Counted from the first letter of the stretch, positions 45,632 to 52,841 are shown. The stretch: DNA of 64,000 nt from Verrucomicrobiota bacterium (GCA_016199985.1 JACQFQ010000048.1:3965-67964), one strand, 5' to 3'. Numbers and translations: made by a program. Notes: generated by a model from the letters alone, not told the origin.

Positions 45632-46420
45632 CTACCTGGAGGCGACCTTGAGTAGGTACCTGATCTCGTCATCAACGTCCTCTGGTTTTTCGACGATTTT
45701 CGCCGCCTCCAACCGAAGCAGCTCAGCATAGCGCTTTCGACACCGCAACAGGGCGACTCGAAAAGCGCCTTCGGTCATTCTCGATGCCGAGGCGGCCGAT
45801 TGTTGAGAGACCCCCTCGCTATCCGTGAGAAAAGGGCGCATGTTCTGAAACACCTCGGATTGGTCCCTTTGTTTGTAGTCCCTCTCCAATGCGTTAATCA
45901 CGTTTGAAAAGAAAGCGTGGGCAAACGCGGAATCGAACCGCTCATCGGACGCAGATGGATTGTCGGCTGGTAACAATAAGATGGAATCGCCCAGTGCGGT
46001 CTGTTCATCCAGCGAAATGACCTCAACAGCCCCGCCTCGTTTCTGGGTCTTCGTGAGGCGCATCCTGTCGATTGCGAAGTGTTGCACCGATCTGAACAGG
46101 AAACTTCGAAAACGTCCCTTGGAAGGTTCCGCCTGCCTGGCGACTTCGCGGATTCGGTCCGCAACAAAATCCTGAAAACAATCCTGCGCTTCCTGATGTG
46201 AGCCGCTCAATCCCGAGTTCCGCAACCATGAGACAAAGGGAACGGAGTAGTTGGCTAGTAGTTGTTCCAAGGCCTTTGGGTCATCCTTGCTCGCGAGTTT
46301 GACTCCATTCCAGTCGGTGGTGAGAAGGCTAAATCCGTTTTCTCTTGTAGGGTCAGCGCCGCGGCCGGCTGGGAGCTCAGTCCTCAATCTAGCGCCACCC
46401 GAGCTTGAAGAGTTGGACAT
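45632..46420 (-). CDS. ECF-type RNA polymerase sigma factor, ECF43-like (Ser/Thr-kinase-associated class)
   Basis: The pattern TTDWNGV...ALEQLLANYSVPFVSWLR...EAQDCFQDFVADRI...KGRFRSFLFRSVQHFAIDRMRLTKTQKRGG...SLDE, then MTEGAFRVALLRCRKRYAELLR (region 4), matches the kinase-linked ECF family as I remember it. ATG at 46420 preferred over 46540. No anti-sigma gene is adjacent. Confidence 0.8.
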   Translation of the reverse strand: MSNSSSSGGARLRTELPAGRGADPTRENGFSLLTTDWNGVKLASKDDPKALEQLLANYSVPFVSWLRNSGLSGSHQEAQDCFQDFVADRIREVARQAEPSKGRFRSFLFRSVQHFAIDRMRLTKTQKRGGAVEVISLDEQTALGDSILLLPADNPSASDERFDSAFAHAFFSNVINALERDYKQRDQSEVFQNMRPFLTDSEGVSQQSAASASRMTEGAFRVALLRCRKRYAELLRLEAAKIVEKPEDVDDEIRYLLKVASR

Positions 46421-46569
46421 GGCAGCGGTATATCTCCTGCGCAGCACTTTTGCAAGCCAGCGAGCAAACCCGTAACAGATGCCCAAACATCCCGTAGTGA
46501 AAGAGGAGTGAAGCGAGACGATTCGGCAATGCATCGGCATTTATCAAGCACCTTGGCTTCCATGGTTCG

Positions 46570-52000: not shown

Positions 52001-52841
52001 CGACCACCGGTCCCGGGTTTCACCGAAACTGGCCCTCCAGTGGGAACCGAGCGCATCAGCTTTAGTTCGTTCAGTATATACTCGGGGATTGGGGGGAGTC
52101 AGTTTGGATGAGAGTTTTCGGCTTGAGCCCAGCCAACTCGCGGGCTTTCCCCAGGCCTTCCGGAGCATTATTTCAGAGTCCGAGGCGGGATCCGTTGCCG
52201 TTCCTGCCTATGAAGTGATTGGGATCGCGGGCGACTACCGAACACGTTTCCGCACCTACTTGGGACTGGAGTTGATGCGTTTGACGTCCAGGTCAGAAGA
52301 GTCCATCGGCGCGTTTGATGAACAGTCGGGAAGCCCTTTGCCGACCCACATCCAAGAATTGCTCAGATACAAGGAACATTCCGCATCCCTGCGAGTTGGC
52401 CAATTGCTGGGGCGGGACTGGCTCGTCGGAGCTGAGTGCGGAATGACGCGTTCACTCCTTGTGAAACGATATCCTATCATCACAGATCCGACGCCGGCGG
52501 GAAATCCGTCCAGTGAGGAGGTCGCAAACCTGCGCAGCGTCAAACTGCGTTTGATGTATCACAATCCGACCGGCCTTTTTGCTCAATGTGAATCCTCTTG
52601 GCTTTGGCAAGACGACATGAGGGCCCCTGTGGATCAGGCAAATGGTATCCTGAGCAAACCGCCTGAATCGGTTATGCAATTGGATCTGCAGGTTGGTTTC
52701 AGATTCAATAGGCGCAGGGGGGAAGTCGCCTTCGGTGTTCGAAATCTCACGGGACAGGACTACCGGCTTACGGCACTCACTCCGATCCCCGACTTGCCTC
52801 GATCGCGCGTATTCACGACGAGTCTCAGGTGGAGATTCTAG
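49071..52841 (+). CDS. FecR-domain + TPR + C-terminal TonB-dependent-receptor-like beta-barrel fusion protein (1256 aa)
   Basis: The start ATG overlaps the kinase stop (ATGA at 49071-49074). It has a signal peptide, a FecR-like region at about 49260-49720 (G..I.T......A.V.F.D.S.V.V...T.LEI......IELEEGEIYV......I....T..G....GTEY.I) and TPR-like repeats at about 50220-51050. The last 600 aa or so are alternating-strand rich and end in VRNLTGQDYRL...PRSRVFTTSLRWRF, which is a terminal Phe plus a TBDR-like last-strand motif. Confidence 0.82.
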   Translation: MKNLVTAGVRASHTPRIAPLKSVDSQGSSATSLAAVIVALLWVLPATVARCENSLLETLNQTNRPGRVTSAQNRVDYLSAGKAIDIVHTNQFLDFGEGIRTAELAKATVQFLDLSHVRVRDRTRLEIVSGSVSNQHPTIELEEGEIYVSSRGSRGITIPFQTKHGKGIPHGTEYVIRATPLETEIVMFDGEVEFENGVDRKLVASGSRAVSSANSEIRVFPILMGRRIVQWWVYYPGILDPAELGLEGQELSRLRPSLGAYELGNLNSALTNLNQPGVRASLTSESARCYEASLLLACGSVEQAKSILETIGPTNVLALSLRAVVHAFEDPALASASTNAPATTTSPSSGSELVKGAARPRRRPAGVRSEDTAQAVANLTEGQSPSWLLAESFRAQADGDLHRALHHARAAVAVSKRFGFGWSRVAELEFSFGNLRGADEAAQLALSLTPENAQAYALRGFLLASTYRVAEAIKAFDRALELDPGLGNAWLGRGLCKRRVAGLGWLSSRRRLIGKGWLDDLQTAAAVEPRRSLLRSYVGKSFAEQSERASASKELGYAKRLDPEDPTPWLYSAFGLWENNRINEAMSDLESSIALNDNRAVYRSSLLLDQDRSVRSASLARIYRDAALPNVGLTEASRAVSLDYANFSSHQFLAESYDALRDPTRFNLRNETVWFNELLMANILSPPGAGLLSQTLSQQEYGSLFESEKLSIRSATEYRSDGEWRQTAAQSGQFGGAAYSLDLDYESKSGRRSNETLDRKEWFSQVKQQVTDRDCVFLMTKVLALEAGDNFQRYDPSAVDTHFRLNETQTPLLVAAWHREWQPGSHTTLMAGRLAGDLDIKQQLNVWDAFPDWSNVNQYRIEDLRYRNEYQITTVELNQIHQTERQTWIAGVRLNDGEFKTSTSLEHVTVGGVINPLLDAFFAAPIISVTREPFLRLSPYCYHSWLATEHLLLTTGLTFDHLRFPDNFRFPPINAGSDHRSRVSPKLALQWEPSASALVRSVYTRGLGGVSLDESFRLEPSQLAGFPQAFRSIISESEAGSVAVPAYEVIGIAGDYRTRFRTYLGLELMRLTSRSEESIGAFDEQSGSPLPTHIQELLRYKEHSASLRVGQLLGRDWLVGAECGMTRSLLVKRYPIITDPTPAGNPSSEEVANLRSVKLRLMYHNPTGLFAQCESSWLWQDDMRAPVDQANGILSKPPESVMQLDLQVGFRFNRRRGEVAFGVRNLTGQDYRLTALTPIPDLPRSRVFTTSLRWRF

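Follow-up and report, generated by a model that had tools for sequence, protein, structure and literature searches.

A WD40 kinase and a kinase-linked sigma factor encoded beside an NsrA-like outer-membrane protein in Verrucomicrobiota: a probable surface-to-transcription signalling locus

The locus described here lies in a stretch of 64,000 nucleotides from a Verrucomicrobiota bacterium (GCA_016199985.1 JACQFQ010000048.1:3965-67964), called the window below, and all coordinates are positions in this window. It consists of three genes, encoding a sigma factor related to the extracytoplasmic function (ECF) type, a Hanks-type Ser/Thr kinase with a WD40 propeller, and a protein, referred to here as the fusion, that joins a FecR domain, tetratricopeptide repeats (TPR) and a C-terminal beta-barrel. 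Profile comparisons relate the fusion to NsrA, a receptor of Sinorhizobium meliloti. Considering the domain architecture, the predicted folds and the gene linkage together, the locus probably encodes an NsrA-like outer-membrane sensor, a transmembrane Ser/Thr kinase and a sigma factor that form a signal route from the cell surface to transcription.

Genes and predicted proteins at the locus

The genes, the region between them and the parts of their products are as follows.

45632-46420, minus strand: ECF-like sigma factor, 262 amino acids, of a kinase-linked family of Verrucomicrobiota (hidden Markov model (HMM) matches, family alignment)
46421-46569, no strand: divergent intergenic region of 149 bp between the sigma and kinase genes (coordinates), presumed to hold the promoters
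46570-49074, plus strand: Hanks-type Ser/Thr kinase, 834 amino acids (Pkinase match, motifs)
46651-47466, plus strand: kinase domain, kinase residues 28-299 (Pkinase, 174 bits)
47545-47628, plus strand: transmembrane helix, kinase residues 326-353 (one strong hydrophobic helix)
47899-48834, plus strand: WD40 propeller region, kinase residues 444-755 (WD40/beta-propeller matches), followed by a conserved C-terminal tail
49071-52841, plus strand: NsrA-like outer-membrane protein (the fusion), 1256 amino acids (HMMs, models, homology)
Fusion residues 26-52, plus strand: predicted signal peptide (N-terminal hydrophobic segment)
49266-49733, plus strand: FecR beta-domain, fusion residues 66-221 (N-terminal model)
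49812-51122, plus strand: TPR-like solenoid, fusion residues 248-684 (model), with a disordered linker at 331-362
51201-52838, plus strand: predicted 22-strand plug-less barrel, fusion residues 711-1256 (model)
52092-52205, plus strand: loop of 38 residues that connects strands 13 and 14 of the barrel and is highly conserved, fusion residues 1008-1045 (alignment and model)

A first-pass annotation, made by a model from the sequence alone, had placed the sigma, kinase and fusion genes at these positions with the sigma gene divergent, and the open reading frames (ORFs) and HMM matches confirmed this arrangement. Its description of a Hanks kinase with a single transmembrane helix and a WD40 part was also borne out, as was the ATGA overlap between the kinase stop and the fusion start (49071-49074). 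The catalytic motifs of the kinase are complete, with GRGAMG (GxGxxG) at residue 32, VAIK at 51, HRDLKPSN at 162, DFG at 182 and SPE at 209. Because the protein has a single transmembrane helix and no signal peptide, the WD40 part would be periplasmic. The post-propeller tail of the kinase (window 48930-49074; PEWLWVVVSRMAG) has a consensus, 'P.WLP.(L/F)AE.(V/I)AG', in common with its orthologues at four other loci (L001, L005, L006 and L019 of the census described below), and this C-terminal tail of the WD40 kinases may be a contact element.

In the fusion, FecR (PF04773) matched residues 99-193 with 35 bits and E 1.6e-8, above the Pfam cut-off, and TPR matches fell at residues 430-600. The match to TonB_dep_Rec_b-barrel was weak, and PF00593 matches were present in many fusion homologues. 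Residues 600-1256 were modelled with AlphaFold2 using 63 homologues (pLDDT 89, pTM 0.90), and the model comprised four TPR-like helices followed by 22 beta-strands that extend as far as the C-terminal Phe (DSSP), with the TPR helices passing directly into barrel strand 1. When this model was searched against the PDB with Foldseek, all 50 listed matches were TonB-dependent transporters, among them PqqU, YncD, FoxA, FecA and FhuA, with a best E of 1e-18 and TM-scores of 0.48-0.56; as modelled, the barrel is TonB-dependent transporter-like. The combination of FecR, TPR and a TonB-receptor-like barrel in one protein, as first annotated, was thus confirmed by Pfam, AlphaFold2 and Foldseek, and the structure prediction that had been suggested for the C-terminal part gave a beta-barrel with no plug domain. 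Neither Plug (PF07715) nor STN (PF07660) matched the fusion in domain scans at E <= 0.1, and neither appeared in the Pfam lists of 120 homologues. No TonB box was detected in the fusion, and no search aimed at TonB boxes was made.

The model of residues 55-700 (pLDDT 83) contained an all-beta domain at 66-221 followed by about 20 TPR-like solenoid helices. Because Foldseek returned TPR proteins exclusively for this N-terminal model, the FecR beta-domain being swamped, the FecR assignment rests on Pfam. Within the barrel, the loop at 1008-1045 has the consensus GGVS.DES.RLEPTQLAGF.QAFRS.ISES and is a candidate for a lumen-constricting or functional loop; the conserved segment 662-710 is the other candidate for closing the barrel lumen.

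The sigma matched TIGR02937 (sigma70-ECF) at E 6e-7 over residues 50-230 and Sigma70_r2 at E 2.5e-4, both under the curated cut-offs. It is a divergent member, with a best identity of 38%, of a family that counts at least 530 proteins, about 250 amino acids long and mostly from Verrucomicrobiota, which their sources name ECF or sigma-70 factors. Many of these homologues carry precomputed Sigma70_r2 or Sigma70_ECF matches, Sigma70_r4_2 matches occur too, and the family profile matched the ECF sigma structures RpoE 2q1z and SigE in the PDB at E about 1e-3. The family alignment favoured the start codon at 46420 over that at 46540.

The sigma had first been annotated as ECF43-like. The defining feature of group ECF43 is that the acidic DxxD motif of sigma2.2 has been lost; the group consensus at this place is QTTA or STTA, and a phospho-threonine supplies the charge (PMC13147305, PMC8999054). 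The alignment gave EAQDCFQD for the window sigma and DAQDLTQE, the canonical DxxDxxQE, as the family consensus. Because the acidic sigma2.2 motif is kept, the sigma appears from its sequence to be kinase-linked yet not ECF43-like, and the ECF43 assignment was rejected on this motif. The retained DxxDxxQE patch also makes the EcfP mechanism, in which phosphate supplies the charge missing from sigma2.2, unlikely for the window sigma, and a phosphorylation site, if any, must lie elsewhere than in ECF43. A site in the sigma linker would be more plausible, by analogy with Thr106 of EcfK, which is also controlled at a linker threonine (PMC13147305). The family has an invariant QKRGG after sigma2, within a long sigma2-sigma4 linker, and the near-invariant Ser136 (ISLDEQ) that follows QKRGG is a candidate phosphorylation site.

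A Pkinase gene lay beside or near each of six sampled sigma homologues on long contigs, directly downstream in five and within 3 kb in the sixth. The C-terminal domains of these kinases vary (HEAT, TPR, WD40), and no fusion gene was found in the stretches around the six homologues. No anti-sigma domain was found by domain scans of the ORFs flanking the sigma locus, as the first-pass annotation had stated.

Homology to NsrA and partner receptors of the family

A tblastn search of plasmids with the window fusion gave matches on Sinorhizobium megaplasmids, including a paralogue encoded by a 1229-amino-acid ORF with FecR and TPR domains. Aligned with hhalign, the fusion-family profile matched this paralogue over its full length (probability 99.75%, E 2.7e-27, 1018 columns), and across 97% of its length the paralogue shares 41% identity with the product of the pSymB gene annotated 'nsrA: signal perception protein'. 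The profile also matched NsrA itself, over the FecR and TPR parts (probability 99.6%, E 1e-24). BLASTP of the window fusion against NsrA aligned the TPR region alone, at 26% identity, so profile methods were needed. NsrA is an outer-membrane receptor of S. meliloti with a 'beta-barrel portion' at amino acids 600-1200 (PMC7529298). From the profile homology and the shared architecture, we consider the window fusion a remote homologue of NsrA and hence an NsrA-like receptor.

On pSymB, nsrA (1200 amino acids, FecR and TPR) overlaps cyaK, which encodes a CHASE2 domain joined to a cyclase, by 1 nt, and pairs of the nsrA-cyaK type are likewise found on Methylocystis and Rhizobium plasmids. Perception of a plant uL2 protein signal requires NsrA together with the CHASE2 cyclases CyaK or CyaD1/D2 (PMC7529298, PMC13001267), a role demonstrated for S. 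meliloti alone (PMC7529298). As a separate observation, a DUF5706 gene, annotated 'Pycsar system effector family', is found upstream of nsrA-cyaK in divergent orientation, both in S. meliloti (L085:5304-5849) and in Rhizobium sp. BG4 (L087:5373-5912).

More than 600 full-length fusion homologues were present in the protein collection. A scan of species-representative genomes counted at least 587 relatives, in records nearly all titled Verrucomicrobiota and often with several copies per genome. NsrA has hitherto been treated as a peculiarity of rhizobial symbiosis, and this evidence points to a large family concentrated in Verrucomicrobiota. From these relatives the 80 best loci (L001-L080) were taken for a census, in which ORFs were clustered and searched with custom HMMs. 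An inner-membrane receptor with a periplasmic domain stood beside or near the fusion gene in 55 of the 80. The commonest neighbour was a CHASE2 receptor (51 loci), with cyclase output in 31, Ser/Thr kinase in 11, hybrid histidine kinase in two and TIR in three, the rest being unclassified or cut by contig ends; Pfam confirmed the joining of CHASE2 to Guanylate_cyc, Pkinase, hybrid histidine kinase or TIR. In 29 loci the CHASE2 receptor gene was directly downstream on the same strand, with gaps of about -41 to 264 bp, mostly below 60 bp. The commonest Verrucomicrobiota arrangement thus reproduces the nsrA-cyaK operon.

A kinase of the window type, with the kinase domain, transmembrane helix and WD40 part in that order, occurred in four loci (L001, L005, L006 and L019), always immediately upstream of the fusion gene, and the five WD40-kinase-linked fusions, including that of the window, are 40-59% identical to one another. 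In the window and at three of these four loci (L001, L006 and L019) the genes stand in the order sigma, WD40 kinase, fusion, and analogous triads of sigma, CHASE2-Ser/Thr kinase and fusion occur in 6 of the 11 CHASE2-kinase loci. The triad whose conservation the first-pass annotation had proposed to check therefore recurs, and none of the computational outcomes that this annotation had named as refuting it was obtained. Where a partner of the fusion is present, it is a membrane receptor with a periplasmic domain, whatever the cytoplasmic output. Counting cyclic AMP (cAMP), Ser/Thr kinase with sigma, histidine kinase, TIR and WD40 kinase with sigma, the NsrA-like family is wired to at least five outputs.

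The linkage of sigma genes to output type was compared by Fisher's test between the kinase-output loci (n = 16: the window, the 4 WD40-kinase loci and the 11 CHASE2-Ser/Thr kinase loci) and the cyclase-output loci (n = 31). A sigma gene was present in 10/16 of the former versus 0/31 of the latter (p = 1.5e-6). The window-type sigma was found in the window, L001, L019, L034, L062 and L067; L006 had a relative with a weaker score, and L010, L051 and L053 carried a sigma of a second ECF type. The sigma-kinase pair and the fusion-receptor pair are two separate widespread modules that are joined in the window locus.

The FecR domain was compared with the other regions of the fusion by a permutation test on identity within the WD40-partnered group (n = 5 sequences) minus identity between WD40- and CHASE2-partnered groups, region by region. 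The difference was 0.117 for the FecR domain (p = 0.004), and those for the TPR region (0.024) and the barrel (0.020) were not significant. Because the FecR domain, and not the TPR region or the barrel, diverges with partner type, the result fits a receptor-contacting surface on the FecR domain.

Three further observations were made in the census. The CHASE2-TIR receptors (L021, L038 and L075) and the CHASE2-PAS-HisKA-HATPase-REC receptors (L052 and L069) widen the range of outputs. A conserved secreted protein of about 393 amino acids with no Pfam match adjoins the NsrA-like gene in 18 of the 80 loci (e.g., L024:18746-19927, minus strand), often on the opposite strand, and no counterpart of this family was found in the window. 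Several loci of Verrucomicrobiota type come from metagenome-assembled genome records titled Bifidobacterium or Bifidobacteriaceae, Klebsiella, Saccharimonadales or Haliangiales (L004, L005, L008, L037, L042, L056, L062, L071 and L075), titles that probably reflect mistakes in binning or labelling; if L056 and L062 did represent a genuine Myxococcota case, it would bear on the sigma group ECF267, which is discussed below.

A possible signalling route and alternative readings

The model that the evidence supports best is as follows. The NsrA-like receptor would be held in the outer membrane by its 22-strand barrel, with the FecR domain and the TPR solenoid reaching into the periplasm. The barrel or its loops would pick up an external or envelope cue, and the receptor's periplasmic portion (probably the FecR domain) would relay it to the periplasmic WD40 propeller of the inner-membrane Hanks kinase, whose cytoplasmic domain would activate the adjacent ECF-like sigma, probably by phosphorylation. 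The sigma would then switch on local genes, of which that for a 1150-amino-acid Ig-domain (immunoglobulin-domain) surface protein is the first candidate. We lean slightly towards such a three-part, envelope-crossing signalling route, and the idea of trans-envelope signalling, already put forward in the first-pass annotation, has an experimental precedent in the homologue NsrA.

The foremost alternative is that the NsrA-like protein is chiefly a channel or transporter, bringing a ligand in or letting a product out, and that the WD40 or CHASE2 receptor senses the molecule in the periplasm without contact. The 22-strand barrel, whose best structural matches are transporters and in which no plug domain was found, agrees with such a role, and giant secreted proteins with a common C-terminal tail are frequent neighbours of the family. 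The exporters BcsC, PgaA and PelB offer a comparison, as they have a TPR scaffold. However, many loci have no giant neighbour, and the divergence of the FecR domain, rather than of the barrel or TPR region, with the type of partner receptor fits direct contact better. In the Fec system, FecR domains serve as modules for protein contact (PMC5498481), and the protein signal for which NsrA has been described as the receptor has the size of a ribosomal protein (PMC7529298). We therefore regard a primarily transporting role as unlikely.

A second alternative accepts the receptor and denies the last step of the proposed route: the kinase would have other substrates, and the sigma would be controlled by its own transcription or by an unlinked factor. 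The sigma keeps a canonical acidic sigma2.2 motif and need not be intrinsically inactive, and kinase-linked groups besides ECF43 may work differently, as a review has pointed out (PMC8999054). Against this, a Pkinase gene accompanies all six sampled sigma homologues, sigma genes track the kinase-output and not the cyclase-output receptors, no anti-sigma factor was found nearby, and EcfP and EcfK are demonstrated cases of a sigma that is phosphorylated directly by the kinase next to it (PMC8999054, PMC13147305). A sigma indifferent to its kinase is in our estimation improbable, a little more so than the transport reading.

Mere coincidence of a sigma-kinase pair with a functionally unrelated fusion gene would agree with the wide occurrence of the pair without the fusion, and of the fusion without a sigma, but it is very hard to reconcile with the ATGA overlap of the kinase stop and the fusion start and with the position of the WD40 kinase immediately upstream of the fusion in 5/5 loci whose fusions are only 40-59% identical. 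The reading of the FecR-TPR protein as an anti-sigma factor, tentatively made for the neighbour of ECF267 sigmas, was rejected on topology and is barely credible here, since about 25 residues precede the N-terminal hydrophobic segment and leave no room for a cytoplasmic anti-sigma domain, the models make the rest a periplasmic beta-domain, a TPR solenoid and an outer-membrane barrel, and the fusion family is mostly paired with cyclases in loci without a sigma gene.

Several points weigh against the signalling route from receptor through kinase to sigma. In about 13 loci no receptor gene adjoins the fusion gene although the flanks are ample, and 6 of the 16 kinase-output loci have no sigma gene, some contigs ending close to the genes. 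The co-variation of the FecR domain is based on five WD40-partnered sequences and is weak for the window protein (identity 0.30 versus 0.26). The acidic sigma2.2 patch appears intact, and the sequence gives no hint that the sigma would be inactive without phosphorylation; the Thr of the DLTQE motif is absent from the window sigma, and no phosphatase gene lies nearby. An open 22-strand pore, if the modelled barrel is one, would point to transport rather than signalling; the lumen may instead be occluded by the barrel's own loops or by the FecR domain.

More speculatively, and with clearly less confidence than in the three-part route itself, NsrA-like proteins might be a general outer-membrane input that is independent of TonB and anti-sigma factors, with the FecR domain docking on unrelated CHASE2 or WD40 sensors and, here, a Hanks kinase switching a sigma with an intact acidic patch through a new type of site (e.g., Ser136). 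If true, cell-surface signalling would have a third mechanistic class in addition to the proteolysis of the Fec type and the charge complementation of the ECF43 type. Should the signalling model described above hold, diderms would possess a modular connection between outer membrane and cytoplasm that needs neither TonB nor regulated anti-sigma proteolysis. The model would also explain the 'FecR-like TPR protein' beside ECF267 sigmas and provide a family of kinase-linked sigmas, their acidic patch intact, for studying a second mechanism of phospho-control. For the CHASE2 domain, which is without a ligand, it suggests that the ligand might be the FecR domain of the outer-membrane partner.

Surrounding genes and comparison with known systems

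Two further features lie on either side of the three genes.

42012-45464, minus strand: large secreted Ig-domain protein, 1150 amino acids, 167 bp downstream of the sigma gene on the same strand
52933-52949, plus strand: terminator-like hairpin, 92 bp past the fusion stop (consensus match alone)

The Ig-domain protein is possibly a lipoprotein, with a likely start at Met39 (about 45350), and we infer from its position that it is the first candidate target of the sigma. It ends in VFYQVHWNP, a tail of the 'FYR type' that is also seen in giant proteins encoded next to NsrA-like genes, and relatives of the Ig-domain protein itself recur at such genes too. In L001-L080, about 50 ORFs encode such giant secreted proteins near NsrA-like genes, with NHL, Kelch, Ig, Calx-beta or trypsin-like domains and a common C-terminal tail of about 45 amino acids ('...rFYR....'); the tail had no Pfam match among the representatives scanned and may be a sorting signal. 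The hairpin is a possible end of the kinase-fusion operon, and apart from it a scan for sigma-70 promoters and terminators gave nothing above chance. The downstream ORFs at 53187-54695 and 54732-56471 had no relatives in the 80 loci, and Pfam was uninformative beyond HEAT repeats.

The whole locus is contained in a block of about 16 kb (window 42000-58000) with a G+C content of 0.54-0.61, compared with 0.62-0.67 in the flanks. The block starts right after an ApbE gene, and a HigA-like antidote gene lies at 56825-57277 (minus strand); no tRNA gene was found in the window. The block may be a horizontally acquired island. Outside it, at 60866-63163 (minus strand), lies a gene for a hybrid histidine kinase (PAS-HisKA-HATPase-REC, 765 amino acids). 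In sequence clustering this kinase falls together with the output half of the CHASE2 histidine kinases encoded in L052 and L069. Two ORFs on opposite strands overlap almost fully, at 39347-40828 (minus strand, 493 amino acids) and 39461-40813 (plus strand, 450 amino acids); the minus-strand ORF had no Pfam match, the plus-strand ORF being outside that scan.

The closest characterised system is NsrA with CyaK (or CyaD1/D2) of S. meliloti. Both receptors have a signal peptide, FecR, TPR and a C-terminal barrel of about 600 amino acids, their lengths are 1200 and 1256 amino acids, and in both cases the receptor gene is operonic with that of an inner-membrane receptor bearing a periplasmic domain. 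Most Verrucomicrobiota relatives resemble this system further in keeping the CHASE2-cyclase partner (31/80 loci). In contrast, the window partner is a WD40 Hanks kinase instead of a CHASE2 cyclase, and the output is a sigma factor where S. meliloti uses cAMP with Clr.

The locus also shares with FecI/FecR/FecA an ECF-type sigma, a periplasmic FecR (PF04773) domain and a barrel of 22 strands that has the fold of TonB-dependent transporters. In the Fec system the FecR domain belongs to an inner-membrane anti-sigma factor, whereas in the window it is fused to the barrel; no anti-sigma domain, plug, STN domain or sign of TonB coupling was found in the window, and the relay would be a kinase. The initial view that all three Fec parts are present here but rewired was therefore right about the FecR domain and the barrel fold and overstated otherwise, given the lack of a plug, an STN domain and a detectable TonB box.

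The ECF43 pairs EcfP/PknT of Vibrio parahaemolyticus and EcfK/PknS of Xanthomonas citri resemble the window pair in that a sigma gene stands beside that of a transmembrane Hanks kinase with an extracytoplasmic domain and without an anti-sigma factor. They differ in sigma2.2, where the DxxD position is uncharged and carries the phospho-threonine in ECF43 and reads EAQD in the window and DAQD in the family, and in the long sigma2-sigma4 linker with invariant QKRGG of the window sigma family.

In ECF267, a 'FecR-like protein with tetratricopeptide repeats' was recorded in silico beside the sigma together with a conserved protein kinase, and Casas-Pastor et al. (2021) were unsure of the role of the FecR-like protein (PMC7826278); its gene is at position +1 according to the bioRxiv text of the same authors. 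The parts, an ECF sigma, a protein kinase and a FecR-TPR protein, are alike, and by this likeness of parts the ECF267 trio looks like a proteobacterial counterpart of the window trio. Unlike the window trio, ECF267 is reported from Proteobacteria alone (28 proteins), and its FecR-TPR protein was read as a possible anti-sigma factor (PMC7826278).

FecR proteins are encoded with inner-membrane receptors elsewhere as well, namely a LysM-FecR protein with a CHASE2 histidine kinase in Burkholderiales, and an outer-membrane FecR protein plus a TPR protein with a CHASE2 cyclase in Campylobacterota (PMC5192318, PMC9239204). The parts are separate in those bacteria and form one polypeptide in the window, and the partner domain is CHASE2 there and WD40 here.

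The first-pass annotation had named no characterised system with this combination of parts. That remains correct for the version with kinase and sigma; it does not hold for the FecR-TPR-barrel protein, which has a genetically characterised homologue in NsrA with CyaK (PMC7529298), nor for the set of an ECF sigma accompanied by a FecR-like TPR protein and a kinase, already recorded for ECF267 (PMC7826278). The NsrA-CyaK system and the in silico ECF267 trio were thus known already, and what is new is the wiring of an NsrA-like receptor to a WD40 kinase and a sigma factor.

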